Of a stretch of 16,228 bases of DNA, positions 1,766 to 16,228 are shown piece by piece (position 1 is the stretch's first letter; each line of letters opens with the position of its first letter). The notes below the pieces were generated by a model. The model made no database searches. It was not told the origin of the DNA and worked only from the letters and a program-made list of their open reading frames with translations. The stretch is from a virus. The translations under genes and the position numbers were made by a program. Where the stretch lies: the UHGV virus genome UHGV-1335354; one strand, written 5' to 3'.

Positions 1766-2317
1766 TTACGCTTCCTGCTCTTTCTTGATACGTTGCACCG
1801 TCTGTGTGCTGACACTGAAATCTTTTGCTACGCTCCGAATTGATCCACCATTCGCGAGAGCGGCAACAATTCCCGCTCGATCAATTGCTTTTCCATTACC
1901 ACGTTTTGCTATACGCCCAGCTGCCTTAGCTGCGGCGATCCCTTCACGTTGACGCTCAAGCATCATTTCACGTTCCATTTGTGCCACTGCTGCAAGCACT
2001 GTGAGCATCATATTCCCTGCGGGAGAGTTCTTCCCTGTCTTAAAGTCTTCTTTATGGAAATGCACAGACACGCCGCGCTCTGTTAATTGCTCAACCGTTG
2101 CCAGAAGGTCGGCTGTATTACGGCAAAGGCGATCAATGCTGTGAACATGCAAAACATCACCTTCCCGCACATAGTTCATCATTGCCTCAAACTGTGGGCG
2201 CTGGGTATTCTTGCCTGACGCTTTATCTTCAAAGACTTTATCAAGAGTTACTCCAGCTAATTGACGGTCTGTGTTTTGTTGCACAGTCGATACCCTAATG
2301 TATCCAATATTAGCCAT
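1766..2317 (-). CDS. serine recombinase, small resolvase/invertase type (183 aa)
   Basis: N-terminus MANIGYIRVSTVQQNTDRQ with catalytic Ser at position 10, conserved R/D residues of the resolvase catalytic domain, C-terminal HTH (GGSIRSVAKDFSVSTQTVQRI). AGGA Shine-Dalgarno upstream. Confidence 0.85.
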   Translation of the reverse strand: MANIGYIRVSTVQQNTDRQLAGVTLDKVFEDKASGKNTQRPQFEAMMNYVREGDVLHVHSIDRLCRNTADLLATVEQLTERGVSVHFHKEDFKTGKNSPAGNMMLTVLAAVAQMEREMMLERQREGIAAAKAAGRIAKRGNGKAIDRAGIVAALANGGSIRSVAKDFSVSTQTVQRIKKEQEA

Positions 2318-2551
2318 TTTCTTTATTCCTTCTGTGTTGATTTGTGTGTAGTGATTATTGATCGTGTTGATTAGGTGTGTAAAGGACTTTTTTCACTACG
2401 AAATTCGAAGGTTTTTAGTGTGGTGATTTAGCCTGCTTTATCACTACACGTCTTGCATGAGAATCATGTAGTTACATTTTGGTAAAATTAGCAAGCTATT
2501 AAATAGTGTGTTTATTTTGAAAAAATAATTTTTTGTTGCATTAAAGGAAAC

Positions 2552-2585
2552 TTGTTCAATAAATGGTAGAACATTTATTGAGCAA
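2552..2585. promoter_or_regulatory. 34-bp palindrome (14-bp arms, 13/14 match, 6-bp spacer): candidate protein-binding or recombination site
   Basis: TTGTTCAATAAATG-gtagaa-CATTTATTGAGCAA read from the sequence, ~235 bp upstream of the serine recombinase start. Confidence 0.35.
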
Positions 2586-2940
2586 CAATTTTGCAGTGAT
2601 ACGCTATATGCCGCATTACATAAGGCTTTGCTGATGATAATGTAAAAGTGAAGAAAGTAAGAATTGCACTTTGAAGCTACTTTTCATTGCATTTTTTAGT
2701 ATGGAATTACACGGAATAAACTATGAATATTCTACGATTTACACGAGATATTCTTGCTGTTTAATTCCGGCTTTGGAGATCAGGCATTCGCAAGAATACG
2801 CTAACGCGTTGCCTGAAAAGCCATTGCACATAATAGAGGTGAGCGTATAGCGATACACTAATCATAACAACATCTTCTTACTTTTTAGTTAGTTAGTTGT
2901 TAGTAGGTTATTGTTATGCGCGCTATTAGCGCATGTATAA

Positions 2941-2989
2941 AGGTATCATTTTTATCTAAAGGGGCTTTAGACATTTTTGATACCTTTTT
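2941..2989 (+). terminator. bipartite hairpin (outer 8-bp and inner 6-bp stems) followed by a T-run; candidate rho-independent terminator or structured RNA
   Basis: AGGTATCA...CTAAAG-GGG-CTTTAG...TGATACCT followed by TTTTTC. Confidence 0.35.
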
Positions 2990-3025
2990 CTGTGCAAGAC
3001 ACTTACCAGTGTATAGTGCGGTTTC

Positions 3026-3077
3026 CCTACCTACCCAGGAAATGAGTTCCTACCTACCCAGGAAATGAGTTCCTACA
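3026..3077. repeat. 23-bp perfect tandem direct repeat, 2.3 copies (CCTACCTACCCAGGAAATGAGTT)
   Basis: Copies at 3026-3048 and 3049-3071 are identical, followed by partial copy CCTACA. Confidence 0.9.
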
Positions 3078-3084
3078 ATACTAT

Positions 3085-3106
3085 AATTAAACTACAATTA
3101 AACTAT
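3085..3106. repeat. 11-bp AT-rich tandem repeat x2 (AATTAAACTAC / AATTAAACTAT)
   Basis: Read directly from the sequence, immediately after the 23-bp repeats. Confidence 0.7.
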
Positions 3107-3239
3107 CTTTTATAAATTCTTTTATCTTTTAAAGAATAATTATAGGGATACCCGTTAGGGAGTCTTCGACTATCCCTTAATCTATTGGCATTCGCCAGAA
3201 CCTTGCACAAGTTAGACTGATGCTTGTCATAACAGATAG

Positions 3240-3287
3240 TTTTTGTTTTTTGTTTTTTGTTTTTTGTTTTTTGTTTTTTGTTTTTTG
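3240..3287. repeat. heptanucleotide microsatellite (TTTTTTG), about 7 units
   Basis: G at 3245, 3252, 3259, 3266, 3273, 3280 and 3287 with T6 between each; perfect periodicity of 7. Confidence 0.95.
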
Positions 3288-3943
3288 TTAGTAGTTAGCT
3301 GATCTATGTTCGCTTTCCGCTCACAACGAATATGTAATCTACTATGTGCAAATAGCCTACGGCTTGCGTATGGCTAATAGTCTTGCGCTGTGCGCAGAAC
3401 GATAATTAACTAACTACCATCTAACGATTGAAATTTACTTGTGCAATAACCTGAGCGTAAGCGAATGGTTGTTAGTGTCGCGTTACCCTTTGGGGATGCT
3501 AACGCATAACATGACAAAACAACCAACAACAAAAAAGAAAGAATGGTTTTTGTAGTTGAAGGTTAAATAAGATTCTACCGCTTAAATCAAGCCGTAGGCG
3601 AGCTTAACAGGGTAATGTAAGGGAAACACCTTAGCGGTAATAGATTAGCTCGTTACAGAGCTTCTGAGAACTTTGCAGGTATTTTATAAGATGTCTGAAA
3701 TCAGAGTTTATCTATCCACCATCTTTCCATCATCTGATAAATCAAAAATAAGACCCTTAAATAAGCCTCTGACGAGATAAACAACCTCTACATAAGGGAA
3801 TGTATTGTTTTTATCAAAACCCCGTCAGAGTGCGATTGAGAGCGTTTTAGACAACAGGGAAGAATTGTACCAGAGTAGGCAGCACAAAAAGCTAAGAAAA
3901 ATTATAAGAAATTGAAAATGATCAAATTTTTTATAAAAGAGGG

Positions 3944-3972
3944 TTGACAAAGCCGCCGTTATGTAGTATTGT
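3944..3972 (+). promoter_or_regulatory. candidate sigma70 promoter for the rightward small-gene operon
   Basis: TTGACA (3944-3949), 17-bp spacer, TATTGT (3967-3972); about 115 bp upstream of the first gene. Confidence 0.45.
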
Positions 3973-4088
3973 AAGTAGGGAGGGGAGAAACATCTCTCTC
4001 CATCTAAATAATCAAATCACAGAACACTGCACTTTGAGCCGTCAGGCTGCAAGGTGTGTTTTTCTTTTATCTAAATAAGGAGTTTTTT

Positions 4089-4271
4089 ATGAAATGGTAT
4101 ACACCGGAACACGTCGTAGAGGCATTTAAAAAAGGTGAGCTAACACGACATCAAGTAAGGATGAACAGGAACACAGCGCGGCGCTGTGGTTATCCAGAGC
4201 GTGAAAAATGCTTTGACGATGCACTAAAAATTATTGATGAACTGCGTAAGGCAGAAGCAGAGAAAGAATAA
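4089..4271 (+). CDS. hypothetical small protein (60 aa); ORF track start 4056 is probably too far upstream
   Basis: ATG at 4089 preceded by TAAGGAG at optimal spacing; protein MKWYTPEHVVEAFKKGELTRHQVRMNRNTARRCGYPEREKCFDDALKIIDELRKAEAEKE. Confidence 0.5.
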   Translation: MKWYTPEHVVEAFKKGELTRHQVRMNRNTARRCGYPEREKCFDDALKIIDELRKAEAEKE

Positions 4272-4294
4272 TAACAGGAGAAGGAGAAAACCAA

Positions 4295-4471
4295 ATGAAT
4301 ATTAATTTTGATTCTGCAACTTATAACGCGTTGTTAAATCGTGCAAAGGCAGAAGGGAAATCAATTCCAAAACTTGTTAATGAATTACTAATTACAGTCC
4401 TTACAAAGGAGGAACTAAATGAACCAAAACACCAAAACAATTGCCGAAGCAAAAGCGCAATGCCTCAATAA
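4295..4471 (+). CDS. unannotated small ORF (58 aa), possible ribbon-helix-helix (CopG/Arc-like) DNA-binding protein
   Basis: Hand-translated: MNINFDSATYNALLNRAKAEGKSIPKLVNELLITVLTKEELNEPKHQNNCRSKSAMPQ; GGAGAAGGAG upstream; N-terminal 40 aa resemble an RHH fold by composition; overlaps the next gene by 53 nt in another frame. Confidence 0.4.
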   Translation: MNINFDSATYNALLNRAKAEGKSIPKLVNELLITVLTKEELNEPKHQNNCRSKSAMPQ

Positions 4472-5084
4472 GAAAGATAGTAAACAAACATATGTAGTAG
4501 TTGAACAATGGCTGAAGATGTTTAAAAAGTGGTTCTCACCGTCAGGTAAGGAATACACCGCGACACTTCCAGCCGTTGAAATCTACAGTTACGTAGCTGG
4601 GTTCAATGAACAAGGGCAAGAATGTTACGCCAATCAAAAAACATTAGCTAATATTGGAATGGTTAGTGATCGTCAGGTGCGTAATATTATAAATATGTTT
4701 ATTGATATGGGTGTTCTTTCTGTAGAGGCACGGGACGGGCAAACATCACTCTATAAAGCATTACCCTTTACAGATGCACACATCACACCACCGGAAGACG
4801 TAAAAACCTCTGTAAACGTAGAACAGCCTGCACCTGAAACACAGGAACCGTTAGAAGCGACACACTCTATTGAGCAGGAAACACAGGCAGAAATCACGGA
4901 ACAATCTGATCTTTTTACATGGCTTATTTCCATAGACAGCCAAAAGCCTATGCAAGAAGAAACAGAAAATTTTATAAAACGTGCACTGACCTCGAAGAGG
5001 ATAATTCTTGAAGATGATGCTTTTAATGCACTGATGATAGCCCTGAGAAAAGAAAGTGAAATCTATGACTCAATACCATTTTAA
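4419..5084 (+). CDS. putative winged-helix/HTH DNA-binding protein (221 aa), replication-initiator-like or regulator, with acidic low-complexity C-terminal half
   Basis: AAGGAGG Shine-Dalgarno 7 nt upstream; central segment ECYANQKTLANIGMVSDRQVRNIINMFIDMGVLSV resembles HTH modules of phage/plasmid replication initiators; no Walker motif. Confidence 0.55.
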   Translation: MNQNTKTIAEAKAQCLNKKDSKQTYVVVEQWLKMFKKWFSPSGKEYTATLPAVEIYSYVAGFNEQGQECYANQKTLANIGMVSDRQVRNIINMFIDMGVLSVEARDGQTSLYKALPFTDAHITPPEDVKTSVNVEQPAPETQEPLEATHSIEQETQAEITEQSDLFTWLISIDSQKPMQEETENFIKRALTSKRIILEDDAFNALMIALRKESEIYDSIPF

Positions 5085-5096
5085 GGAGAATAAAAA

Positions 5097-5354
5097 ATGA
5101 AATACAACCTGACATTAAACAAACGAACATTCGAAATTACAGAAAGCGGCTACACACTGGCAAAACAGATCGCTGATAGCAATTATAAGCTACCCGCGAT
5201 TATCAGCTTTCAGGAGTTACCGCACAGTAAAGAACACACACAGCATTGGCTAAATCACCTAAGCCATTTTGGGGTAATTCAGTATGAAGCTGTGAATAGT
5301 CAGACGTTCCGTTTGCTCGAGGTAAACCCGTTTGAATTGTGGATGACACTGTGA
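5097..5354 (+). CDS. hypothetical protein (85 aa)
   Basis: ATG preceded by AAGGAG; part of the co-oriented operon; no family recognised. Confidence 0.5.
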   Translation: MKYNLTLNKRTFEITESGYTLAKQIADSNYKLPAIISFQELPHSKEHTQHWLNHLSHFGVIQYEAVNSQTFRLLEVNPFELWMTL

Positions 5355-5557
5355 TCATATTCGATGGCGAATTTTCACAAGAAATCTTTCTGCAATATTT
5401 ACGGGAAAGAACGGGAATGATTCTGTTTGATTCTGAGTTTTCCGGTGTGGTAGGTGAGCAATTTTTATATGCTCTTCTCGATAACCTAAGTAAACAAGGA
5501 TTATTGCAGTATACAAAAACTCATATGAAAGCATTCAGAATCGACTCTGTAGCTTAA
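5339..5557 (+). CDS. hypothetical protein (72 aa), GTG start overlapping the upstream gene
   Basis: Open frame with GTG at 5339 overlapping the preceding stop; no family recognised. Confidence 0.35.
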   Translation: MDDTVIIFDGEFSQEIFLQYLRERTGMILFDSEFSGVVGEQFLYALLDNLSKQGLLQYTKTHMKAFRIDSVA

Positions 5558-5685
5558 AACAAACAACAAACAACTATCAAACATCTTGAAGGGTGAAACA
5601 ATGGAAAGCTTAATATTTTTCTTAGTATTTATGATCGCTTCCTTTTTTAACACTGCAACAAGAAAAACAAAACGAAGGGGAAGCA

Positions 5686-6066
5686 ATGAGCAAGAAAAAA
5701 GGCAAGAAAAACGTAATAACAACTATTGGCGAAGCATGTGATCAGTATGCGTTAAACAATCCTCGCAAATATAATTATGAGCATGATGCACAACCAGGCG
5801 AGGAATTGATCTTTATACTTGAAGAACCAAGCCCAGAATTGACAGACGAAGAATTATCAATCATTCAAAGTATGGATGGTGTTTACTTCAATCCGCGCCC
5901 ACGCAAAACAACAATCATTGATAGTAGTCTTCTTAAAAGATGGCAGTGTTTAGGCTTCCAGGATATGAATCATTTTCGTGGCTACATGGCTCTTAATAGT
6001 TTGCAGTATGCAGGCGCAAGAGAGACAGAGTTACTTATGCTTGAAAGAATAAAAATAGACGATTAA
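5686..6066 (+). CDS. hypothetical protein (126 aa), lysine-rich N-terminus
   Basis: ATG preceded by GAAGGGGAAG; no family recognised. Confidence 0.5.
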   Translation: MSKKKGKKNVITTIGEACDQYALNNPRKYNYEHDAQPGEELIFILEEPSPELTDEELSIIQSMDGVYFNPRPRKTTIIDSSLLKRWQCLGFQDMNHFRGYMALNSLQYAGARETELLMLERIKIDD

Positions 6067-6107
6067 CAGCGTTGGCTGAATATAACCCTTAACAAAAGGA
6101 AAATAAA

Positions 6108-6329
6108 ATGATTAACAAAGCAATTTTAGAGACAACCACTTTTCATGATCTTAAGCTTCTTTCAGAATGTTTTATAAATATTATTGAACGTGCAAAGGAA
6201 GAGAACGATCTGGCAACTCTGGATGACGTTGTAGACAACATTGCAACTTATAAAATCCCGCTCACTATTGCTATGAAGAAAGCACGCGAAGCACAACAAA
6301 AATTAGAACAATTAGAGGAAGTGGCATAA
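6108..6329 (+). CDS. hypothetical small acidic protein (73 aa)
   Basis: ATG preceded by AAAGGAAA; stop overlaps the next start (ATAATGA). Confidence 0.5.
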   Translation: MINKAILETTTFHDLKLLSECFINIIERAKEENDLATLDDVVDNIATYKIPLTIAMKKAREAQQKLEQLEEVA

Positions 6330-6643
6330 TGAGCGAAGTTCACACCGTAACTATTCAGCTATACGATTTAATCATCGACCTTCAAAAATCTGTTAACGAA
6401 GCCATAGAAGATCCGACAGAATTTAATATAGGAAAAGCCGTTCTCAATCTTCAATCTCTACATGATGCAATGTCAATGTTAGTTGTAGCTTGTGAGGAGG
6501 CCGAAGGCGGGAAAGTTGATGCAGAAGATCTTGCAAACTTCAATCTCATGTTGGCTGATTGTAGTTGTGTTGTTCAAAGTGCAATAGAAGACTTACAGCC
6601 GCTTATTGATAACCTGTTAAGGGGTAAGCATGAGCAACTTTAA
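6329..6643 (+). CDS. hypothetical strongly acidic protein (104 aa)
   Basis: GAGGAAG Shine-Dalgarno; Asp/Glu-rich composition; translationally coupled to neighbours. Confidence 0.5.
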   Translation: MSEVHTVTIQLYDLIIDLQKSVNEAIEDPTEFNIGKAVLNLQSLHDAMSMLVVACEEAEGGKVDAEDLANFNLMLADCSCVVQSAIEDLQPLIDNLLRGKHEQL

Positions 6644-6863
6644 AACTAAGCGTGTGGAGTGCCTGGCGCTCTCTGAGATGGGCGTGTCCTGCGCCTGTTT
6701 CACCATTGGAAAGATCTATACCGGACTACTGAACACAGAGAATAGCTTGATGGTTATCACTGATGACAACGGCAACAACCAGGCGGTTGTAGTGGGCGGT
6801 GCGTGTGCTTTCGGTAGCTGGAAACTGACTACAAAGAAAAATGAAAATAGCACGAATAGCTAA
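6630..6863 (+). CDS. hypothetical small cysteine-containing protein (77 aa)
   Basis: AAGGGG upstream; overlaps the upstream stop; local GC higher than neighbours. Confidence 0.45.
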   Translation: MSNFKTKRVECLALSEMGVSCACFTIGKIYTGLLNTENSLMVITDDNGNNQAVVVGGACAFGSWKLTTKKNENSTNS

Positions 6864-6872
6864 AGATATACA

Positions 6873-6901
6873 TTGACTTTATAACAAGAATGTTATATAA
6901 T
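6873..6901 (+). promoter_or_regulatory. near-consensus sigma70 promoter with no convincing ATG-initiated ORF downstream
   Basis: TTGACT (6873-6878), exactly 17-bp spacer, TATAAT (6896-6901). Confidence 0.45.
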
Positions 6902-6956
6902 AATAAATATGCTTGGAAGATGATAAAGCAAGGATTGCATATTCTCCAATTATATC

Positions 6957-7316
6957 TTACCTCTGCAGCCTCTTATTGTCAATAAGAAAATCTAAGAGAC
7001 GGCGACCGCCACGATCGCCCATCTCTTTAAAACAGTTTTTAGAAAACATCCTCGTGTTTTTCATTGTTGGGTCTGTTCTGATTAGTTTTTCCCTTTTGGT
7101 AAGCGCGGTAGTTTCATTCCTTTTCTGCCGCTGCTTATTTTCAACAAAGAAAAGTTTTCTAAAAGCTGTTTTATAACAGCCTATACCCCTATAAGTTATT
7201 GAACGTTTCTTGGCTGGGTATATGCCTTGCGGCATAAAATCACTATTAAAATTATGTTTCCAACCCGTAGCAAGTTGAGCGTAGTTGAGTGATTCCTTGT
7301 TATCTGTTCTCGCCAT
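6957..7316 (-). CDS. possible basic protein (119 aa, Lys/Arg-rich); may be spurious
   Basis: ATG-initiated minus-strand ORF, weak and poorly spaced Shine-Dalgarno, rare codons; start codon is embedded in a palindrome; lies antisense to the orphan promoter. Confidence 0.25.
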   Translation of the reverse strand: MARTDNKESLNYAQLATGWKHNFNSDFMPQGIYPAKKRSITYRGIGCYKTAFRKLFFVENKQRQKRNETTALTKREKLIRTDPTMKNTRMFSKNCFKEMGDRGGRRLLDFLIDNKRLQR

Positions 7317-7345
7317 ACCTGATGGGCGTCAGGTTATGAACAGAT
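7302..7345. promoter_or_regulatory. nested inverted repeats (outer ATCTGTTC/GAACAGAT, inner CCTGA/TCAGG): candidate operator or RNA structure
   Basis: Read from the sequence; arms share the CAGAT/CCTGAT motif with the terminator stem at 7431-7477. Confidence 0.35.
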
Positions 7346-7430
7346 AGCGCCTTGCGCCAGTTACACATCCCTTACGGTCGGTGAATCCTAAATAGCCAAC
7401 TACCTGGTAACGGTGCATTGTATTTGAGAA

Positions 7431-7486
7431 AACAGATCAGGAAAGACTTTCCAAAGGGTCTACTCGCCTGATCTGTTCTTCTTTTT
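7431..7486 (+). terminator. long-stem hairpin followed by a T-run: candidate rho-independent terminator
   Basis: Perfect 11-bp stem AACAGATCAGG / CCTGATCTGTT with a 25-nt loop, followed by CTTCTTTTT. Confidence 0.5.
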
Positions 7487-7591
7487 AGAACATATAACAA
7501 TGACTGATCATTCTTATATGCTCTTCTCATGAAAGTATATAATCAATGTTATGCTTAATTCGAACATTAAAACCCCCCTCTAATTAATATA

Positions 7592-7619
7592 GCCAGCCTA
7601 CCCGCTGGCATATTTTTAT
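7592..7619 (+). terminator. short hairpin plus T-run, second candidate terminator before the structural-like operon
   Basis: GCCAGC-ctaccc-GCTGGC followed by ATATTTTTA. Confidence 0.35.
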
Positions 7620-7656
7620 AAGTGGAAAACAAATCTGTTATAAATGGGACCACTCC

Positions 7657-7860
7657 ATGAAAAAACAAGACATGATAATCAGTAAAGACGGGGAAACGAT
7701 GACTGTTAGTGATGAAAACATCCTTAAAGTTGCCGCACTGTTGGGAGTTACTCCCGAAAGTCTTCGCTCTACTACTGAACAATTGTTTAAATCTGCTAAT
7801 AATGCGGAAACACCCGCACAGGCTATTTTAAACCGAATCACACAACTGAAAGGAAAATAA
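7657..7860 (+). CDS. hypothetical small protein (67 aa), first gene of the structural-like operon
   Basis: ATG-initiated; predicted largely helical C-terminal half; scaffold-like role is speculation. Confidence 0.45.
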   Translation: MKKQDMIISKDGETMTVSDENILKVAALLGVTPESLRSTTEQLFKSANNAETPAQAILNRITQLKGK

Positions 7861-7865
7861 TATAT

Positions 7866-8252
7866 ATGGCTAACCCATACGGCGTTAAATTCGCCCCTGT
7901 AAACGCGAGCAATGACCTTGTGCGTTGCAAAATTATCGCCTATTCCGGCGATCCCCTGCTGCAAGACCGTTTAATCACACTGGCGGCACCACTGACAGAA
8001 GATGTTATTGTCGGTGATCTGCTGAAAGCTGATGGCACCAAAGCAACCGCCGCCGCTGATATCGCTTACGTCGCTGTAGAACCTTCGTTTGCAGGTCAGG
8101 AAAGCGTAGTGGTTGCACATCCTACTTTCGTTATTCTGGCGCGTGCTGGTATCGAATTTAACGGCATGGCAGAAGAAAGCGTGATCTCAAAACTGCAATC
8201 TATTGGTTTCGTGATCGCTGGTTATTCCGAAGCTGCAATCCCTACTACTTAA
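7866..8252 (+). CDS. possible phage head decoration-like protein (128 aa)
   Basis: Size, position directly upstream of the capsid-sized gene, and a loose pattern resemblance to lambda gpD/SHP-type decoration proteins; E. coli-like codon usage. Assignment unverified. Confidence 0.55.
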   Translation: MANPYGVKFAPVNASNDLVRCKIIAYSGDPLLQDRLITLAAPLTEDVIVGDLLKADGTKATAAADIAYVAVEPSFAGQESVVVAHPTFVILARAGIEFNGMAEESVISKLQSIGFVIAGYSEAAIPTT

Positions 8253-8270
8253 TATAAGGAAATATAAATA

Positions 8271-9305
8271 ATGAATATTCAAGAATTATTTGGTCGTCAG
8301 GCGAGCGTAGTAAGCCCATTCGAATATGAGCAAGGCTTAAACCTGCTGTTCTCTTCCCTGGAGATCTTTGATAAGCAATCTCACAGCACTAACAGTATTC
8401 TTCTGACTACTGCAATTGAAAGCTTTATGCAGATTGCAAATGAGCAAGAACCCTACGCACAAAGTCAGTGGGACTCAAGCAAGCGCGGCACCTTCTCAAA
8501 CGTAATGTTTGAAATGAAGCACCTTGCAACCATCAACAGCGTGACAAGTCGTGATCTTGAACAGTACAGCCGTAAAAATCTTTCTACTGCTGACTCTATG
8601 CTGCTGGCGATCAATGATTTTGCTAATCAGCATTACCGCTCACATGAGAACGCTGTAGAACGTGATCTGCTGCGTGCAATCCTCACGCTGAAAGTAGAAT
8701 CTCAATTTGCAGGTCAAGGTGATATTGATTTGCTGGAAGGTGACGCTAAAACCGTAGCGCCTGCAATTGACTTCACAAGCACTACCGTAAACCCTTACCG
8801 TGCACTGGCTAAGATTGTTCGTCAACAGTCTAACATTCTGGGCGAATCCCTTGCGGCTAAACGTTCCGGTGTTCTTGTGCTGGCTGCTGGCGGCGCTGCT
8901 GATGGTCTGCGTTACAACGATATGCTGAAAGATCAGGTTGTTTACTCCAGCAATGCACAGGCAAGCGCGGCAGTAACTAAGATCGTAGCTGATAACCCAG
9001 CGTATGATGCTTTCCAGCTTGCACAGGTGACTGTTATTGATGTTAGTGACTTCCCGTCAATCGTTGCAGAAATCGGTGAAAATGGTTTGGTTGTGATCCC
9101 GCTGTTCCCTGCTGATGTTCAAGCTTACGTGCTGCATACAGGCGTCGCGGTCCGTCATGCCGAACACGGTAAAGATGCGGAAACACATCACCAATATCTG
9201 ACACAGGATCAGTTTATGTTCCCGTCAGTGTGCACCGAAACGGCTTACCTGCCATTCATTCAGAAAGTAGTTGCTAAAGCGATTATCTTCTCTGAAGCAC
9301 AGTAA
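8271..9305 (+). CDS. possible major capsid protein of the lambda gpE-like family (344 aa)
   Basis: AAGGAA Shine-Dalgarno; length matches gpE (~341 aa); N-terminal segment QELF...FEYEQGLNLLF resembles the gpE N-terminus as I recall it; follows the decoration-like gene as in lambda D-E order. No alignment run. Confidence 0.6.
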   Translation: MNIQELFGRQASVVSPFEYEQGLNLLFSSLEIFDKQSHSTNSILLTTAIESFMQIANEQEPYAQSQWDSSKRGTFSNVMFEMKHLATINSVTSRDLEQYSRKNLSTADSMLLAINDFANQHYRSHENAVERDLLRAILTLKVESQFAGQGDIDLLEGDAKTVAPAIDFTSTTVNPYRALAKIVRQQSNILGESLAAKRSGVLVLAAGGAADGLRYNDMLKDQVVYSSNAQASAAVTKIVADNPAYDAFQLAQVTVIDVSDFPSIVAEIGENGLVVIPLFPADVQAYVLHTGVAVRHAEHGKDAETHHQYLTQDQFMFPSVCTETAYLPFIQKVVAKAIIFSEAQ

Positions 9306-9347
9306 GAATAATAACGCTCCAGCACGTTAAAAAATAATGCTGGCGAT

Positions 9348-9414
9348 AAAGGGCAAAAGGGATTAACTAACCTGTAAAGCAAATACAGTAACGGATCTCT
9401 TTGCCCTTTTTTCG
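9348..9414 (+). terminator. long hairpin (AAGGGCAAA ... TTTGCCCTT) followed by a T-run downstream of the capsid-like gene
   Basis: 9-bp perfect stem with ~42-nt loop then TTTTTCGTTT; an inner 6-bp inverted repeat CCAGCA/TGCTGG lies at 9318-9342. Confidence 0.4.
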
Positions 9415-9448
9415 TTTATACCGTCTATTAAATATTGAGAGAAAAATC

Positions 9449-9649
9449 ATGAGCGAACAAAACAAACAAGTAGAATTATATAAAGCAGTGCGCACACTGG
9501 CAGAAAACACCGATGAATCCATTGTAAACGTTAGCGCCTTATGCCGTTTTCTGGATGTGGATCATAATCGTGTGCGTCAATATGCACATTACCACAATGT
9601 AAGTGCAATCGCGGCTATTCAGTATGTGATGAATAACCCTGTAAAATAA
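9449..9649 (+). CDS. hypothetical small protein (66 aa); ORF track start 9401 is a TTG inside the upstream hairpin
   Basis: ATG at 9449 preceded by GAGAGAAAAATC; no family recognised. Confidence 0.45.
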   Translation: MSEQNKQVELYKAVRTLAENTDESIVNVSALCRFLDVDHNRVRQYAHYHNVSAIAAIQYVMNNPVK

Positions 9650-9667
9650 TAAAAGGAGTACCCAACA

Positions 9668-11515
9668 ATGAGTTTAGATATTTCTGTATCTACTTTAAAA
9701 AATACAGTAACCTTTGTTACCGATCATAAAAGCCTGAATAAAGCTAAAGCAGAAGTTGAAAAACTCCGTAAGCAAATGTCAGCCGTGAAAGACGTAGAAA
9801 TACGTGTTAAGACACACAAACAATCAACAGCTAAAACAAAAAAAGACGTAGACGATATTGCTAAAAAGCAAGCACAGGTAGATAAGGCAAATCTCAAAGC
9901 ACAAAAAGCGGCTCAACGTGTAGCGGCGCGAGAACAAAAAGCCCTGGCAGCACGCAAAGAGAAAGCAGAATTAAAACTGTTAGATGTTGGATCAAGTATT
10001 AGTGCAATGAATCGTCTTAATGTGTCTGAACAATACAAAGCTATTGCACAAGCTAAAGCTATTGCACACGAATATGAGAAGGGCGCTATTAGCCTGGCAC
10101 GTATGAATAGCCAAATGAAACGACTTCAACAGCAACAACGTAAGATTAACGGCAATCGTAACGCTCATGCTAAAGCTTATGCACCTGTTAAGGGTAGCGG
10201 GAGTATTGGCGGCGGTGCTGCTGCTGTTATGCTGGGCGGCTTAGGCGCTGGCGCTGCATTCTTGGCTATGAGTAAAGCAAACGAATTCGTTGCTAATAGT
10301 TTTGCCAATGCTGAGACACAAGGTGAATTATATAGCCGTGCGAAGCTGGGCGGTGTAGACGTTAACCAGATGAATAATATTGAGCAATGGGCGTATAAAA
10401 ACGGCGTTGATTCAATGATGGGCGAACAAGGGAAACGTAAATACCTCGACCAAATGAAAGATGTGCGTGAACGTGCAACCAAATCTTATGATGAGACTGA
10501 ATATGTAGTTGATAAAAAAACTGGTAAAGGGGAATGGAAGGGCGGCGATTCAGGTATTAATACTTTATTAAACGAAGGTTTCTTAACTAAGAAAGATTTA
10601 AAAGACTTCGCTAATAATCCGGCAGGTTTAATAAGTAAAGCAACACAAGGAATGGTGGCGAAAGGTTATTCTGATGCACAGGTGGGGTCACGGCTTGAAG
10701 ACCTGGGAGATGACCTTATGTTGACCTCCAAATATTGGACACGATCCGCTAAAGAAGTGGAACAATCAGCCCGTGAACAAAAAGAATCAGGACGCTGGAT
10801 AACGCAGGCACAACAGGAAAGCGTGATTAAATTCCGTGAACTGAATAATGCACTTACCGGACTTTCTGACTCACAAGGGATCGCCTTTGTTGATGGCTTT
10901 ATGAAATCTCTCGATCCTGCTGTGATTGAAGAATTTAAAAAGAGCATGGTTGCAATGCTGCCAATGTTTACCAAATTGGGCGAGGCTGTAGGGGGGCTGC
11001 TTAATGCGATCATGAAAACTATCAACTGGTTGATGAAAAATGACGAGAAGACGGCAGCTATTCAGAAGAATTTAGGTGATGCCCCTCCTTTAAGTAATGA
11101 AGGAATGAAGAAGAATTTAGATAATCTCACTCCTGATCAATATAAAGGCGCTGGCACTGCAACAACTGCACCGGATAATAGTAACTCTCTGTTTAATACT
11201 ATTAAGGGCTTTTTTGTTAATGGTGATGATTCTCCTTCTGGCGGTCAGGCTGCAATGCAATATGACGTTACAGGGCAAAACATTGCCAACCTGAAAAACA
11301 GTGCTGCACAGCAAGCTATGCAAGCTCCAGCCTACACATTTGCGCCTGTTCTCAATTTTGCACCTGAATTACAAGTTAATGCACAAGTGCCGCTAACTAT
11401 TCAGAGTGATACCGGACGATTGAGCGATTATATCGACTTCAAATCTAAAGCCTCTGCCGCTGAGTTTAGCAAGCTATTAACCCTGGGCGTTATGTCAGGC
11501 GGGTCAACCTATTAA
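9668..11515 (+). CDS. coiled-coil, glycine-rich protein (615 aa), tape-measure-like
   Basis: AAGGAG Shine-Dalgarno; N-terminal ~160 aa K/A/Q/E-rich coiled-coil-like; Gly/Ala hydrophobic segment GSGSIGGGAAAVMLGGLGAGAAFLAMS; no enzymatic motif or Walker A seen. Confidence 0.6.
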   Translation: MSLDISVSTLKNTVTFVTDHKSLNKAKAEVEKLRKQMSAVKDVEIRVKTHKQSTAKTKKDVDDIAKKQAQVDKANLKAQKAAQRVAAREQKALAARKEKAELKLLDVGSSISAMNRLNVSEQYKAIAQAKAIAHEYEKGAISLARMNSQMKRLQQQQRKINGNRNAHAKAYAPVKGSGSIGGGAAAVMLGGLGAGAAFLAMSKANEFVANSFANAETQGELYSRAKLGGVDVNQMNNIEQWAYKNGVDSMMGEQGKRKYLDQMKDVRERATKSYDETEYVVDKKTGKGEWKGGDSGINTLLNEGFLTKKDLKDFANNPAGLISKATQGMVAKGYSDAQVGSRLEDLGDDLMLTSKYWTRSAKEVEQSAREQKESGRWITQAQQESVIKFRELNNALTGLSDSQGIAFVDGFMKSLDPAVIEEFKKSMVAMLPMFTKLGEAVGGLLNAIMKTINWLMKNDEKTAAIQKNLGDAPPLSNEGMKKNLDNLTPDQYKGAGTATTAPDNSNSLFNTIKGFFVNGDDSPSGGQAAMQYDVTGQNIANLKNSAAQQAMQAPAYTFAPVLNFAPELQVNAQVPLTIQSDTGRLSDYIDFKSKASAAEFSKLLTLGVMSGGSTY

Positions 11516-11562
11516 TCATCGCTGTGGGGCTGTTTAGCCCCCTTAAATAAGGATTACAAATT

Positions 11563-12240
11563 ATGGCTTATGGTGCTTTAACCATCGGACGACCGACAGA
11601 ATCACAAGTAAACAGCACAAGTAACGATTCTAACGCGAAAGCGACGAAAGGACAGAACGGTTTCGCTATCATCACCTCTAACCTCGGCAGTGGTGCTAAT
11701 GCTGCGTATGCAGAGTATCAAGCTCTCAGCTTTGACAGCGTGGAATCGACAAAAGTTAGTCGCAATGCGGACGTAACAAGCTATGCCGTTCAGGATGGGG
11801 CTATGGTGTCCGATCACATCCAGATCAAGAACAATAAGTTTTCATTGCAAGGGCGCGTAAGTGAAACAGTATTGAAGCTTAACCCTGATATGCTTAAGAA
11901 CGCGGGTATTAACGGCAATCGTAGAATGCTTATGCTTGAATACCTAAATCAGATCATGGACTCACGCCAGCCCTTCATGTTGATAACAGAACATCGTAAT
12001 TTTGACAATGTGGTGCTGGTTGGGATTGATTACGAAGAAGAAGCCAGCGAATCATTGCTCTTTAATCTTGAATTCGAACAAATACGCCTTGTGAGCTATG
12101 CAACCACTAACGCTATTGCTACAAAGACACAGAGCAATAAATCGACAGGTGGCAGTGTTAAAACTAAGGTTAACCCGACACCACAAAAAGCACCTACGAG
12201 TACAGGTGAGGACGTTATAACGCCAGTATTTAAACAATAA
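11563..12240 (+). CDS. hypothetical protein (225 aa), last gene of the structural-like operon
   Basis: AAGGA Shine-Dalgarno; followed by a hairpin; no family recognised. Confidence 0.55.
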   Translation: MAYGALTIGRPTESQVNSTSNDSNAKATKGQNGFAIITSNLGSGANAAYAEYQALSFDSVESTKVSRNADVTSYAVQDGAMVSDHIQIKNNKFSLQGRVSETVLKLNPDMLKNAGINGNRRMLMLEYLNQIMDSRQPFMLITEHRNFDNVVLVGIDYEEEASESLLFNLEFEQIRLVSYATTNAIATKTQSNKSTGGSVKTKVNPTPQKAPTSTGEDVITPVFKQ

Positions 12241-12333: not shown

Positions 12334-13554
12334 TTAAGCCTTAAAATCAATATTTAATTCATATCTTACTAATTCTACATATTCAGCTAATTCTTGAATG
12401 CTTGCCCCTTGTGAGTAGGTGCGAAAGGCTTCTGTTTTAGCTATCTGCTCTGTATGTCCGGTAATGGCTCCGATCCGCTGTTCAGGCACTCCGGCACGAT
12501 CAAGACAAGTGATAAACATCCCGCGCAAGCTGTGAAAGCATTGTCTATTTGTAGCGATTGGCAAGACGCTACGACGTAAACGTGAGAATGCTTGAGAATA
12601 GAAAGGGCCTTTCTTACCGTCGATTCTTTTTACTTTGTTCGAGTGAGGGAACAAATATTCACCATAATTATGATTTAAATATTCATCGACAATAATCGAT
12701 AGTCTCGAATGTATCGGAACGTGCCTGATCCCTGCTTTAGTCTTACTTTTGCTGATATAAAAACAGCGTATTCCTTCCACAGTTACAACTTCTGACTTTT
12801 TCAGGCTTGCCAGTTCGTCTAATCTGCATCCTGAAAACAAGCCCATTAAAATAATATTTCTGATCTCCGGCTCCGCTGCATCAAGTAGCTTTTGCATTTG
12901 TTCAGGTGTAAACGGTTGATAACTCTCGATTGTGCGACGTGCTTCGAGGTTATGACCGTGAAAAGGGTTACTGTCTGGTATTCCGTCATAACGGCGTTTA
13001 GCAAATTCATAGAGCGATCCTAAGCATGTAAGCCAGTTTTGACGAGATTGATCGGCTGCTCCTCGTTGCTTCTGGTCATCTAAGAATACTGTTACAAGCC
13101 GTCTGCCTATTTTCTCAATATGAATATCATCTTTCTGAATGCTTTGTAAAAATAGCTCAACGGCCCTTGCTGATTTCTGTAGTGTTGAGTATGAACGACG
13201 CTCTCTGTAGCATTCGGCGTATTCGTCACGTATTAGGCACAGGGAAGGCGATGCATAACCGCGTTTTACGGCTCTTTGCGTGTTTTTATTGGCCCTTGCC
13301 TCTGAATGTAAGGATTCAATAGCTTGTTGTAACCTCCTTTCGGGGTTATCAGGATTATGTTTCCGCTTTAGTTCCTCCCATTCTAATAATAGATGGTTTC
13401 TGAATCTTCTCGCCTCATTCAGATCTCGTGTAGATGTGCTTTTTCTCCACAACTTGTAAGGGTAAAGATGACGTAAGTATTTAGGAACAAAAATCTGAAA
13501 CATCCAGATCCCATCTTTTCTCTTAAATAAGTATGCTTGGCTCTTGATCGACAC
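12334..13554 (-). CDS. int: tyrosine-type site-specific integrase (406 aa), GTG start
   Basis: C-terminal catalytic-domain signature: Arg in GCRLDE, HSLRG box, ITGH, terminal Tyr region; AGAGGA Shine-Dalgarno 8 nt before GTG; lies 86 bp inside the right direct repeat. Confidence 0.9.
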   Translation of the reverse strand: MSIKSQAYLFKRKDGIWMFQIFVPKYLRHLYPYKLWRKSTSTRDLNEARRFRNHLLLEWEELKRKHNPDNPERRLQQAIESLHSEARANKNTQRAVKRGYASPSLCLIRDEYAECYRERRSYSTLQKSARAVELFLQSIQKDDIHIEKIGRRLVTVFLDDQKQRGAADQSRQNWLTCLGSLYEFAKRRYDGIPDSNPFHGHNLEARRTIESYQPFTPEQMQKLLDAAEPEIRNIILMGLFSGCRLDELASLKKSEVVTVEGIRCFYISKSKTKAGIRHVPIHSRLSIIVDEYLNHNYGEYLFPHSNKVKRIDGKKGPFYSQAFSRLRRSVLPIATNRQCFHSLRGMFITCLDRAGVPEQRIGAITGHTEQIAKTEAFRTYSQGASIQELAEYVELVRYELNIDFKA

Positions 13555-13631: not shown

Positions 13632-13661
13632 GGGTTTCCTCGATTCCCTTCGCCCGCTCCA
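13632..13661 (+). repeat. attR: direct repeat of the tRNA-Gly 3' end
   Basis: 13640-13661 is identical (22/22) to tRNA positions 34-55 (TCGATTCCCTTCGCCCGCTCCA); upstream GGGTT also matches with a 3-4 bp insertion. Confidence 0.85.
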
Positions 13662-13893
13662 ATTTATCTTCACCTCATCAATCTGCCATTTTTGCTGTAT
13701 CTGATTTTCTATATTATCTTAATTCAATCGCTTCAGACTTTTCGCAATCGCCGTAATACTTCCCCATTTTTTTGTAAATAAAAGCGTTTACGCAATGCAA
13801 TCCATTTGTAACAACCCAGGTAAAATACCTTATTTTCAAGTTGTTAAATAAGTGGTTATCTACGCTTTTAACAAACGATTGATGGAATATTTT

Positions 13894-15504
13894 ATGAAAG
13901 GGAAATCTGCATTAACTCTTCTGCTCGCTGGTATATTTTCGTGCGGCACATGCCAGGCGACAGGGGCAGAAGTGACGAGTGAATCTGTATTTAACATTCT
14001 TAATTCCACGGGGGCAGCAACTGATAAAAGTTATTTATCGTTAAATCCAGATAAGTATCCTAATTATCGTCTTCTGATTCACTCAGCCAAATTAAAAAAT
14101 GAAATAAAGAGCCACTATACCAAAGACGAAATTCAAGGGTTGTTAACATTAACAGAAAACACACGAAAGTTAACGTTGACGGAGAAACCCTGGGGAACAT
14201 TTATTCTTGCTTCTACTTTCGAAGATGACAAAACAGCGGCAGAAACCCACTATGATGCTGTCTGGCTGAGGGATAGTTTATGGGGCTATATGGCATTAGT
14301 ATCAGATCAGGGAAATAGTGTAGCCGCAAAAAAGGTTCTGCTCACCCTGTGGGATTATATGTCTACGCCCGACCAGATTAAGCGGATGCAGGACGTCATT
14401 AGCAACCCCAAACGACTGGATGGAGTTCCCGGGCAAATGAATGCTGTGCATATCCGATTTGACAGCAACTCCCCCGTGATGGCAGATGTGCAGGAAGAAG
14501 GCAAGCCGCAGCTGTGGAACCATAAACAAAATGATGCGTTAGGTCTTTATCTTGATCTCCTTATACAAGCAATCGACACTGGTACAATTAACGCTGAAGA
14601 TTGGCAAAAAGGTGACCGATTAAAATCGGTTGCGCTGCTGATTGCTTATCTGGATAAAGCCAATTTCTATGTTATGGAAGATTCCGGAGCGTGGGAAGAA
14701 GATGCCAGATTAAACACATCTTCCGTTGCACTGGTGACCTCTGGACTGGAACGTTTGTCGAACTTACTCTCGAAGAAAGACTCTGTTTTTGTCTCTGATT
14801 TACTACGCGAAGCTAAAGCCAATGAACTGGATGAACCTCTTTCAACAACGAGGTTGAACCACCTCATAGATAAAGGTTATGAAAGAATAACGTTACAGCT
14901 TGATTTAGGGGGAGAATCCCCAGGTTATCTGGAAAAAGATAAACATTACAGAGAAGCCGATGCGGCTTTACTTAATGTTATTTATCCTGCAAATCTTTCA
15001 AAGATAAATACCAGAAGAAAAGAGCAAGTTCTAAAAATAGTTAAAAAACTAGCAGGTCCGTATGGTATAAAAAGATACGAGAAGGATAATTATCAGTCGG
15101 CAAATTTTTGGTTCAATGATATTAAAACCGATACCGATCAAAATTCACATGCAAAAAGAGAAATGAGCTTCATTCCATCAACAGAAGCAGAATGGTTTTT
15201 TGACTCATGGTATGCAAAATCAGCAGCAATTGTTTATAAAGAATCAAGAAAAGAAGAGTATTTGAATGACTCAGTGCAATTTATGAATAGATCATTGGCC
15301 CAAATAACAGGCGAGAATATGATTGGTGCAAATGGCAGGAGCGTACCAGAAATGGCACTTCCCGAAAGCTATAACTATATCCACAAGTCGGGAACTTTGC
15401 ATGAAGCGCCAAGCCCTATCATTCCGCTAAATTGGTCGAAAGCTTCAATGACTCTCATGTTGAAAGAGATGTCCAATCTTATCAATGATGAGGGAATTAA
15501 ATAG
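13894..15504 (+). CDS. secreted or lipid-anchored glycoside hydrolase family 15-like protein (glucoamylase-like); alternative starts at 13852 (GTG) and 13882
   Basis: Signal peptide MKGKSALTLLLAGIFSCGTCQA; GH15-type motifs VWLRDS and EDSGAWEED...NTSS (WEE general-acid region). Lies outside the island. Confidence 0.65.
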   Translation: MKGKSALTLLLAGIFSCGTCQATGAEVTSESVFNILNSTGAATDKSYLSLNPDKYPNYRLLIHSAKLKNEIKSHYTKDEIQGLLTLTENTRKLTLTEKPWGTFILASTFEDDKTAAETHYDAVWLRDSLWGYMALVSDQGNSVAAKKVLLTLWDYMSTPDQIKRMQDVISNPKRLDGVPGQMNAVHIRFDSNSPVMADVQEEGKPQLWNHKQNDALGLYLDLLIQAIDTGTINAEDWQKGDRLKSVALLIAYLDKANFYVMEDSGAWEEDARLNTSSVALVTSGLERLSNLLSKKDSVFVSDLLREAKANELDEPLSTTRLNHLIDKGYERITLQLDLGGESPGYLEKDKHYREADAALLNVIYPANLSKINTRRKEQVLKIVKKLAGPYGIKRYEKDNYQSANFWFNDIKTDTDQNSHAKREMSFIPSTEAEWFFDSWYAKSAAIVYKESRKEEYLNDSVQFMNRSLAQITGENMIGANGRSVPEMALPESYNYIHKSGTLHEAPSPIIPLNWSKASMTLMLKEMSNLINDEGIK

Positions 15505-15635
15505 TTTTCATAATGAGTTACAGCACAACGTTGGGTATTGACTGAGCAAGATGAACGACAAGGACAACGACATCAGCCTTATGAGGAGCAAGAAAATGAA
15601 AGCAAATTCGAAAACGATCAGAAGGATGAAAGTTA

Positions 15636-16228
15636 ATGTTCGGTCTGAGGAAAGTAAATCGAAACACTCATACGTTTGAAACCACTTTTCAAAATTGGAA
15701 AGAAAATGGCGAAGATGTTGCATTATTAATGCCCGAATTTAGTGCTAAATGGCTACCGATAGCAGAAGAGAGTGGCAGCTGGTCTGGATGGGTATTGCTT
15801 GGAGAAATATTTCCCTTAATTTCATCTGAGCTCGCTGGGATGGCTTTAATGCCAGAAACGGAAAGGTTAATAGGGGAATGGCTCAGTTTATCCAGTTCCC
15901 CGTTAAATCTAAAGCATCCTGAACTAAAATATAATCGTTTGCGCGTAGGTAAAGTATTTGATGGAGTATTGAGCCCTGCTCAACCACTAATAAGAATATG
16001 GACAGGGGAATTGAATCTTTGGTTAGATAAAGTCACAGTCTGCCAATACGGAAACGCTCCAGCGTTAGACAAAAAATCGTTATATTGCTCCATTCATTTT
16101 GTAATTGGATTTAGTAAAACATGTTACAGAAGTCTTGTTGATATTGAAGTTGGTGATGTTTTATTAATCTCAAATAATTTGGCTTATGCGGTTATTTATA
16201 ATACAAAAATTTTTGATTTAATTTATCC
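15636..16228 (+). CDS. type III secretion SctQ/SpaO-family protein (EpaO-like), 5' part; continues past the window end
   Basis: GAAGGA Shine-Dalgarno; segments WSGWVLLGE...LAGMAL and HFVIGFSKTCYRSLVDIEVGDVLLI parallel Salmonella SpaO (WSAWIKPGDW...LAGAAV; RFVIGSSDTQRSLLGRIGIGDVLLI) as recalled. Confidence 0.65.
   Translation, partial: MFGLRKVNRNTHTFETTFQNWKENGEDVALLMPEFSAKWLPIAEESGSWSGWVLLGEIFPLISSELAGMALMPETERLIGEWLSLSSSPLNLKHPELKYNRLRVGKVFDGVLSPAQPLIRIWTGELNLWLDKVTVCQYGNAPALDKKSLYCSIHFVIGFSKTCYRSLVDIEVGDVLLISNNLAYAVIYNTKIFDLIY

Follow-up and report, generated by a model that had tools for sequence, protein, structure and literature searches.

We analysed a 16,228-nt stretch of DNA (UHGV virus genome UHGV-1335354; "the window" below means this whole stretch) and found that positions 4089–6863 are probably the early operon of a satellite-like island of lytic Stephanstirmvirinae coliphages (Justusliebigvirus, Phapecoctavirus). 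The best-supported function in the operon is that of its third gene, g3, which we infer to encode an origin-binding replication initiator. A preliminary description made from the letters alone had seen here a phage or satellite early region of ten small genes, proposed as candidates for host takeover or anti-defence. Its placement of the genes in a satellite early region agrees with the attachment (att) repeats at a tRNA-Gly gene, the integrase, the few morphogenesis genes and the links to lytic Stephanstirmvirinae that we found.

The window is a stretch of Escherichia coli chromosome and matches strain EC100 from end to end with 99.4% identity. Its left end falls in the 3′ part of a tRNA-Gly gene that lies downstream of actS (Rfam tRNA match at 1–52, the sole match in an Rfam scan of the window; tRNA-Gly is annotated in the EC100 record). 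A 22-nt exact direct repeat of this tRNA end (D7) occurs at 34–55 (attL core, plus strand), marking the left boundary, and at 13640–13661 (attR), and brackets an island of 13.6 kb. A tyrosine integrase gene (12334–13554, minus strand; Pfam Phage_integrase, 1.1e-12; PHROG 1, 1.7e-38) adjoins attR. From left to right, the island consists of a yecR-like lipoprotein gene, a serine recombinase gene, approximately 1.6–1.7 kb free of open reading frames (ORFs), the early operon, approximately 0.8 kb poor in ORFs, and a late module. Searches of the island ORFs against Pfam and PHROG revealed no terminase, portal, sheath, tube or baseplate genes. Integrated, flanked by att sites, equipped with an integrase, and too gene-poor and too small at 13.6 kb to build its own virions, the island has properties expected of a satellite.

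The operon is a genuine cluster of tightly packed same-strand genes, as had been described, with nine genes (g1–g9) rather than ten and a first start at 4089 rather than 4056. The ATG of g1 at 4089 lies 6 nt past an AAGGAG, while the GTG at 4056 falls within a conserved terminator hairpin and T-tract. Gaps separate g1 from g2 (23 nt), g3 from g4 (12 nt) and g6 from g7 (41 nt); overlaps join g2 to g3 (53 nt), g7 to g8 (1 nt) and g8 to g9 (14 nt), g4 and g5 also overlap, and purine-rich ribosome-binding sites precede most starts. Comparison with diverged relatives revealed third-position or synonymous bias in g1, g3, g4, g5, g6 and g7. A further ORF at 5586–5741 (TTG start, 51 aa) was rejected as a gene: relatives carry frame-breaking indels and new stops, and all of its substitutions are non-synonymous, with none at third codon positions. 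Because of these indels and stops, the lack of third-position changes and a nucleotide identity of 95–97% (82–92% in the flanking genes), we regard 5558–5685 (plus strand), between g5 and g6, as a conserved non-coding spacer. It holds CA-rich repeats (AACAAAC x2.4), and relatives have similar CAACAAC repeats in the ORF-free DNA further upstream.

Six of the nine proteins lack an above-threshold match in Pfam, PHROGs, NCBIfam and PADLOC, in keeping with the earlier remark that most belong to no recognisable family. These profile searches, of the kind that had been suggested, covered all ten listed ORFs and gave usable signals for g2, g3 and g9 only. Matches to Sushi_2, YxzE, BrxA and collagen preface fell below cutoffs and were treated as noise, including the weak PADLOC BrxA match of g5 (0.0017). 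A sequence search of the PDB with g1, g2, g3, g6 and the 344-aa protein of the late module gave nothing significant.

The putative initiator g3 (4419–5084, plus strand; 221 aa, net charge −11) comprises an N-terminal winged helix (residues ~30–120), an acidic low-complexity linker (~125–165) and a C-terminal helical part with the tip …EIYDSIPF. Its PHROG matches are all replication-initiation families (270, 391, 186 and 345; 6.8e-6 to 4e-4), and the Pfam domain HTH_36 scores above cutoff in relatives and phage copies (33–56 bits; 33.2 and 55.9). In the ORF-free region, TRF detected 2.2 copies of the 23-nt repeat CCTACCTACCCAGGAAATGAGTT at 3026–3076 (100% match), which we predict to be iterons forming the g3 binding site and origin. 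Adjoining them at 3080–3105 are 2.4 copies of the AT-rich 11-nt repeat ACTACAATTAA (TRF), the predicted DNA-unwinding element. In related islands (L004, L005, L007, L009, L010 and L016–L020 in our locus numbering), identical or analogous AT-rich repeats come after the iterons.

Winged helices and repeats covary. Among 13 islands, four winged-helix types were distinguished, each with its own array of 22–24-nt repeats at the equivalent ORF-free position. The window repeat CCTACCTACCCAGGAAATGAGTT is also present in L004 and, with one base different, in L005 and L016–L019. L007, whose g3 is 99.5% identical to that of L005, has the more diverged TTCCTATCACCTAGGAAATGAG, and L008, with a g3 that is 25% identical, has ACCCTAACAGAAAACTGTTAGCCA; the repeats of L009 and L010 are TACCCCTATCAAAACTGATACCAC and GGTAGGTCACTGTGAACTAGGG. 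L020 is a natural chimera that combines a window-type winged helix with an L010-type C-terminus, and its iterons match the winged helix. In L006 and other islands with a helicase in place of g2–g3, the array is absent.

At the C-terminus of every intact g3, whatever its type, acidic residues precede [IL]PF (…YDSIPF, …YDSLPF, …DDFDIPF), an ending shared by no other of the 3,285 open frames in the loci examined. In E. coli, the C-terminal hexapeptide DDDIPF of SSB, the protein that binds single-stranded DNA, docks many replication proteins (PMC5872125). Given the initiator matches, the iteron covariation and the [IL]PF tips, we propose that the winged helix of g3 would bind the 23-nt iterons beside the AT-rich repeats, and that its acidic linker and …DSIPF tip would mimic the SSB tail and recruit replisome proteins normally docked on SSB. 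The window island encodes neither a helicase nor a primase, so it would depend on replication proteins supplied by the host or a helper.

Directly upstream, g2 (4295–4471, plus strand; 58 aa) encodes a putative small DNA-binding protein with a match to PHROG 36888 (2.7e-4), and its beta-alpha-alpha pattern suggests a ribbon-helix-helix-like fold. It probably regulates the replication module. Although absent from the RefSeq annotation, g2 has homologues of 37–100% identity in other islands, and homologues in phages are annotated as genes. Part of what had been proposed as a host-takeover cassette, namely g2 and g3, therefore appears to be a module of regulator and replication initiator, which is the kind of factor that had been named as speaking against the proposal.

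Expression of the operon is predicted to be controlled by read-through. A sigma-70-like early promoter (TTGACA-17-TATTGT; 3944–3972, plus strand) scored 10/12 in the promoter scan, and its −35 region TTGACAAA is invariant in six diverged islands, whose alignment also shows hardly any variation over ~140 nt upstream of the −35. Between this promoter and the ribosome-binding site of g1 lies a terminator-like leader (4028–4069, plus strand), composed of a hairpin of 12–13 bp (4028–4058) and a T-tract (4060–4069). The hairpin, which is followed by GTTTTTCTTTT, has an RNAfold energy of −29.2 kcal/mol (z = −3.9 versus shuffled sequence) and is kept in all six islands, four of which have an extra A-U pair across both arms. 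The promoter would fire into this hairpin, so that expression of the operon would need read-through. A second promoter-like site (TTGACT-17-TATAAT; 6873–6901, plus strand; 11/12) begins 10 nt past the operon end; L004 has a counterpart at the equivalent position, and L005 has one that is weaker. An intrinsic terminator (7592–7620, plus strand; terminator scan) lies 37 nt before the first late gene at 7657, and every island compared has a GC hairpin and T-run ~30–65 nt before its first late gene, with differing hairpin sequences. Since the space past the terminator is too short for a promoter, late expression likewise seems to be read-through dependent; terminators precede the genes of both operons, and both would share this mode of control.

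The non-coding DNA around these signals has further features. The ORF-free stretch at 2320–3944 (1.6 kb) is 78–94% conserved in other islands and has no Rfam match. It also contains (TTTTTGT)x7 at 3240–3289 and 11-nt repeats at 3710–3735, and AT skew changes sign near 3500. The nearly invariant ~140 nt lie around 3710–3850, ~100–240 nt upstream of the −35, and relatives have a GCGTTTTAGA direct repeat there. On the other side of the operon, the leader at 6901–7592 showed no similarity in seven other islands compared and may be inserted cargo. It holds a 20-nt inverted repeat (7028–7047/7154–7173, 95% complementary) and a minus-strand ORF for a basic 119-aa protein (6957–7316) that is hypothetical in RefSeq and without a family match.

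Phage homologues were found for only three operon proteins (g2, g3 and g9), and all of the phages concerned are Stephanstirmvirinae. At the DNA level, g2 and bas60_0101 of phage PaulScherrer (L003:4015–4200) share 95.8% identity (91–94% for the protein). In L005, g2 is 98% identical to bas60_0101, and in L010 it is 100% identical to muut_153 (L002:3411–3578). The phage genes may be phage-borne copies of the satellite regulator.

The phage counterparts of g3 are chimeric. muut_154 (L002:3630–4628, 332 aa) joins two tandem winged helices to a C-terminal GIY-YIG domain. Its residues 1–123 are 99% identical to g3 of L009, with 96% DNA identity continuing into the upstream DNA, and residues 123–214 are 89% identical to L005-type g3 and 75% (protein) or 91% (DNA) identical to g3 of the window. 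The nuclease domain matches MUG113 (22.5 bits, cutoff 22.3), T5orf172 (15.3 bits, under its cutoff of 20) and PHROG 681 "endonuclease" (2.2e-18); the best PHROG matches of the phage DNA-binding domains are, like those of g3, replication-initiator families. In QNJ49226.1 of Phapecoctavirus Mt1B1_P17 (L022:1147–2133), residues 1–104 are 100% identical to g3 of L008, and the remainder consists of an L005-type winged helix and the same nuclease domain as in muut_154. The first domain is thus swapped between phages, being of L009 type in muut and of L008 type in Mt1B1_P17. Phage BI-EHEC carries a 90% identical copy that is unannotated (L023:1168–2130). Because these genes belong to the core of hundreds of islands, but are found in few phages and there at one variable early locus, transfer probably proceeded from island to phage. 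The iteron segment itself had no match in 50,697 phage records.

In the Vibrio cholerae phage ICP1, the nuclease Odn combines a DNA-binding domain like that of PLE RepA (42% identity) with T5orf172 and cuts the PLE origin, and PLE replication modules are swapped in response to Odn (PMC8263062). The domain architecture of muut_154 and QNJ49226.1 is that of Odn, which makes these wHTH-wHTH-GIY-YIG proteins (wHTH, winged helix-turn-helix) candidate dual-specificity anti-satellite nucleases. At L020:8250–8410, two kinds of array adjoin each other, one of L009 type and one of window/L005 type; this is the same pair of specificities as in muut_154.

A second connection to these phages is provided by the late module (7657–12240, plus strand), which encodes proteins of 67 aa, 128 aa, 344 aa (head-protein-like), 66 aa, 615 aa (tape-measure-like) and 225 aa (Dit-like). 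The 615-aa protein matches the tape measure protein (TMP) family PHROG 16051 (1.6e-27) and is 27% identical to the phAPEC8 tape measure. The 225-aa protein matches Pfam Dit_like PF21821 (4.9e-27) and shares 52% identity (E 2.5e-62) with the "tail protein" encoded next after the 662-aa TMP in phAPEC8. The TMP-like and Dit-like genes (9668–12240) stand in phage gene order. For the 344-aa protein, no direct family match was obtained; it is distantly related (19% identity over 290 aa, pairwise E 1e-7) to the proteins that other islands encode in this position, which match PHROG 29 "major head protein". These three are the only virion-related genes of the island. The sole or best phage matches of the TMP/Dit-like pair, g9, g2 and the g3 domain all lie in Stephanstirmvirinae. 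The tail genes might alter the helper tail or interfere with its assembly; we know of no described satellite family with tail genes.

To define the island family, we read seven relatives in full, integrated at glyU, thrW and a thiM site. They share a skeleton in which the serine recombinase gene is followed by 1.3–2.4 kb lacking ORFs, then by g1 to g3 and a variable set of small genes, by one acidic gene (~100 aa) and, after ~0.9 kb of gap, by the late genes and the integrase; on this skeleton, modules are strongly mosaic. Across complete E. coli genomes, 505 of 5,426 (~9%) match 3900–6900, mostly through the promoter and g1, the most widely conserved block of the operon region. Homologues of g1, g6 and g8 with a named source are all from Escherichia. 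In L006, a 494-aa helicase-like protein replaces g2–g3. A corresponding helicase-type module (492–495 aa) takes the place of g2–g3 in L012 (Logan SRR4054721_283, 13,944 nt), L013 (GCA_036421115.2 ABQCPG020000048.1) and L014 (GCA_009819915.1 VNXH01000043.1), where the 406-aa integrase has likewise been replaced, by a tyrosine recombinase of 188 aa together with an endonuclease VII-like gene. These relatives are contigs of 13.3–14.3 kb that are circularly permuted with respect to one another, one with a 30-nt (k−1) terminal overlap, and they appear to be circular episomes. Damaged relatives occur as well: L009 has IS66 within g3, L008 a g3–g7 fusion, and L010 is a remnant. We found no description of the island family or of the chimeric phage nucleases in the literature searched, which had incomplete journal coverage and concerned satellites of Justusliebigvirus, Phapecoctavirus, Stephanstirmvirinae and phAPEC8, Odn-like nucleases in E. 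coli, and an E. coli defence-island survey.

A wider interpretation, which we put forward tentatively and at slightly less than even chances, is that undescribed Escherichia-specific satellites parasitise virulent 150-kb phi92- and phAPEC8-like phages, to which they bring their own head, TMP and Dit-like proteins, in an arms race of the PLE/ICP1 kind. In such a conflict, phages would capture initiator DNA-binding domains, two per nuclease and swapped among phages, to cut satellite origins, and would copy the small regulator of the satellite; satellites would answer by exchanging replication modules.

Several findings weigh against the satellite-operon interpretation and its initiator. In the window itself, g3 reaches only 22.3 bits against HTH_36, under the cutoff of 25. 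The iterons lie ~1.3 kb upstream of g3, neither adjoining nor inside the gene, and direct repeats of this kind could be the operators of a transcription factor. The assignment of g2 relies on weak matches: PHROG 11622 "transcriptional regulator" gave an E-value of 0.023 (0.0039 for the phage copy), there was no Pfam match, and PDB matches were non-significant (AvtR, E 0.89; 44-aa antitoxin, E 0.52 with the g2 of another island). The type of g2 covaries neither with the type of g3 nor with the promoter (−10 region) sequence, and for want of covariation with g3 type we dropped the idea of g2 as its specificity partner. The stem of the leader hairpin scarcely varies and so gives no true covariation support. 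Six of the nine operon proteins are without functional evidence. IMG/VR scans with the 344-aa protein and g3 returned nothing, or contigs with isolate-genome-like identifiers, and no virome-type relatives; they consequently offer no evidence for packaging. Excision, replication, packaging and helper dependence are predictions from sequence.

In one alternative, g3 is a transcription factor (repressor or activator), the repeats are its operators, and the phage wHTH-GIY-YIG proteins are ordinary homing endonucleases that swap DNA-binding modules with many elements and have no anti-satellite role. HTH_36 domains are known in regulators as well as in initiators, the repeats are situated upstream of the promoter region, the evidence for replication is indirect, and T5orf172 and MUG113 are common in phage homing endonucleases (PMC8263062, PMC10448857). 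We nevertheless consider this alternative unlikely, because the best PHROG matches of both g3 and the phage domains are replication-initiator families and because AT-rich repeats follow the iterons, as they do in iteron origins. Moreover, the helicase module replaces g2–g3 and the repeats together, in the very variant that is seen as circular 13–14-kb contigs; the SSB-Ct-like tail of g3 fits replisome recruitment; and phage genomes lack the predicted target, an absence that would not be required for a homing endonuclease. That the island is a decaying prophage remnant with functionless leftover ORFs appears very improbable. Only three recognisable virion-related genes are left, and several relatives (L009, L008, L010) carry insertion sequences or deletions, as decay would produce; yet the same ~13-kb architecture with intact ORFs recurs at several integration sites, divergence is biased towards synonymous changes, replication modules are exchanged, circular forms exist, and exchange with lytic phages has been recent (96–100% identity).

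The anti-defence proposal hinged on two proteins that had been called markedly rich in Asp and Glu and likened to DNA mimics. This characterisation suits g8 (6329–6643, plus strand; 104 aa, pI 4.13, net charge −14, 18.3% D+E), a core gene of the island family, while g7 (6108–6329, plus strand; 73 aa, pI 4.72, net charge −5) is moderately acidic. The latter is helical by sequence pattern, shows third-position bias, has homologues of 29–89% identity in other islands, and overlaps the g8 start with its stop. We regard it as improbable, more so than the transcription-factor alternative, that g7 and g8 are DNA mimics directed against restriction-modification or DNA-targeting defences and that the operon serves chiefly for anti-defence or host takeover. 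What speaks for mimicry is the net charge of −14 over 104 aa in g8 and its retention in positional homologues of 28–48% identity (L004–L008; pI ~4.05, net −11 to −14), which indicates that acidity is under selection, together with the acidity of g7, its translational coupling to g8, and an early position in a mobile element, the typical location of anti-defence genes. Ocr and ArdA are likewise small, acidic and encoded early in mobile elements.

Neither g7 nor g8, however, matched an Ocr/ArdA-type or any other family beyond noise at E ≤ 0.1 (Pfam, PHROG, NCBIfam, PADLOC), and the charge of g7 is only −5. The AlphaFold2 (AF2) model of g8 is a generic, monomeric three-helix bundle (pLDDT 85.8; helices 3–27, 31–58 and 65–103) without a Foldseek match at E ≤ 0.001 in PDB or BFVD, the best being syntaxin Habc domains and designed bundles in PDB (0.046) and uncharacterised proteins in BFVD (0.12). 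In a profile search of 1.84 billion representatives, g8 had seven matches, one of them a low-complexity repeat protein judged spurious. Its family is thus confined to these islands, whereas anti-restriction genes usually spread over many element types. Classical mimics such as Ocr have a D+E fraction well above 18%, and the charge density of g8 appears to be lower than theirs. With charge as the only argument, the mimic idea for g7 and g8 is unsupported, and annotation as anti-restriction on that ground would be unwarranted. Returning to the satellite interpretation, we suggest with low confidence that g7 and g8, which stand at the end of the early operon, bind proteins of the helper or host machinery. 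More generally, g1 and g4–g9, the acidic pair included, would most likely contact such machinery as family-specific small proteins, and interference with the helper by g4–g9 is possible.

Among the remaining operon genes, g1 (4089–4271, plus strand; 60 aa) has the ribosome-binding site AAGGAG and third-position bias and is the most conserved gene of the island family (77–100% identity in six islands, 41% in L006). Its homologues form 44 clusters, the named ones all from Escherichia, without family matches; g1 is possibly a regulator. For g4 (5097–5354, plus strand; 85 aa), identity in four other islands is 49–94%, synonymous codon changes outnumber non-synonymous ones ~3:1, and weak local similarity to g5 was detected (E 0.001); it has no family matches and is possibly a small winged helix. 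The 68–72 aa of g5 (5339–5557, plus strand) depend on whether GTG 5339 or GTG 5351 is the start. It occurs in closer relatives only, with third-position bias in the more diverged comparisons (4/2/9 and 5/2/12). g6 (5686–6066, plus strand; 126 aa), 37–96% identical in five islands and likewise biased at third positions, comprises 29 clusters, of which the named ones are all from E. coli, and has no PDB or family matches; its AF2 model, from a shallow alignment, is of low confidence (pLDDT 42.6). The Cys-rich g9 (6630–6863, plus strand; 77 aa) matches PHROG 27862 (1.5e-15) and has 43–47% identity to a 65-aa product of the small early genes of Phapecoctavirus (phAPEC8 gp032), present in ~70 phages, and 61–63% identity to its homologues in L004 and L006.

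Outside the operon, the serine recombinase (1766–2317, minus strand; 183 aa) is of the small resolvase/invertase type (Pfam Resolvase, 1e-38; PHROG 125 DNA invertase, 1.7e-61). Of the seven islands compared, six share it at 98–100% identity and L009 at 63%, and this near-identity persists in islands whose other genes have diverged to 25–70%. We abandoned the idea of an invertible switch, as Hin/Gin-type crossover sites (AAACCNNGGTTT) near the gene were no commoner than expected by chance; the enzyme may be a multimer resolvase. The right flank of the window (13852–16228) is ordinary chromosomal context with remnants of the ETT2 type III secretion system, and in the matching RefSeq record this flank has a gene of glycoside hydrolase family 15, while its sct genes are frameshifted.

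If the island is indeed a phage satellite with an iteron replication module that is opposed by Odn-like phage nucleases, it would be an E. coli counterpart of the cholera PLE–ICP1 conflict, in phages that are often isolated and employed as candidates for therapy. The island would then be common and, though unrecognised, would help to determine on which strains phi92- and phAPEC8-like phages can grow. The wHTH-wHTH-GIY-YIG proteins would offer programmable, sequence-specific tools with a specificity that could be deduced from the satellite initiator, g3 would be a compact model of a 221-aa initiator that recruits the replisome through an SSB-tail mimic, and satellite-encoded tail genes would represent a new form of virion hijacking.

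Compared with known satellites, the island resembles the P4-like, PICI and cf-PICI families of SatelliteFinder (PMC10085698) in its tRNA-gene integration, its size range of 10–15 kb, an integrase at one end, and an early regulatory and replication operon followed by morphogenesis genes. It differs from them in the tail genes (TMP, Dit-like) of its late module and in its inferred helpers, which are virulent 150-kb myoviruses in place of temperate phages. Pfam, PHROG and NCBIfam searches of the island ORFs revealed no alpA, pri-rep, terS, rpp, portal, protease, connector, Sid, Psu, Delta or alpha primase genes. In P4, as here, a terminator separates the early promoter from the first gene.

The replication module recalls iteron-type initiators, both those of lambda O-like and DnaD-like PHROGs and the CopG–RepB arrangement of pMV158-type plasmids. 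Shared features are a small gene, putatively ribbon-helix-helix-like, that overlaps the downstream initiator gene, a predicted N-terminal winged helix, and direct repeats beside an AT-rich stretch. Differences are the weak matches (PHROG E 7e-6 to 1e-3), the distance of 1.3 kb between iterons and initiator gene and, with respect to RepB, the lack of a nuclease/HUH domain in g3. We know of no description of an SSB-Ct-like C-terminal tip in iteron-type initiators.

The closest parallel is the PLE–ICP1 system. PLE uses a large serine recombinase, unlike the tyrosine integrase at tRNA genes found here; no sequence homology to PLE genes was detected, and g3 is an HTH_36 protein with an SSB-like tail rather than a RepA_N protein. 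The island also differs from PLE in having its own head-protein-like, TMP-like and Dit-like genes. What the two systems appear to have in common is a chromosomal island of 13–18 kb tied to a large lytic myovirus, an initiator with its cognate iteron origin that is swapped as a module between island variants and, on the phage side, a chimera of a satellite-initiator DNA-binding domain with a T5orf172/GIY-YIG nuclease at a variable early locus (PMC8263062). The nucleases described here go beyond Odn in carrying two tandem satellite-derived domains at 75–100% identity (42% for Odn), and the Stephanstirmvirinae phages, unlike ICP1, also hold copies of the ribbon-helix-helix-like gene of the satellite.

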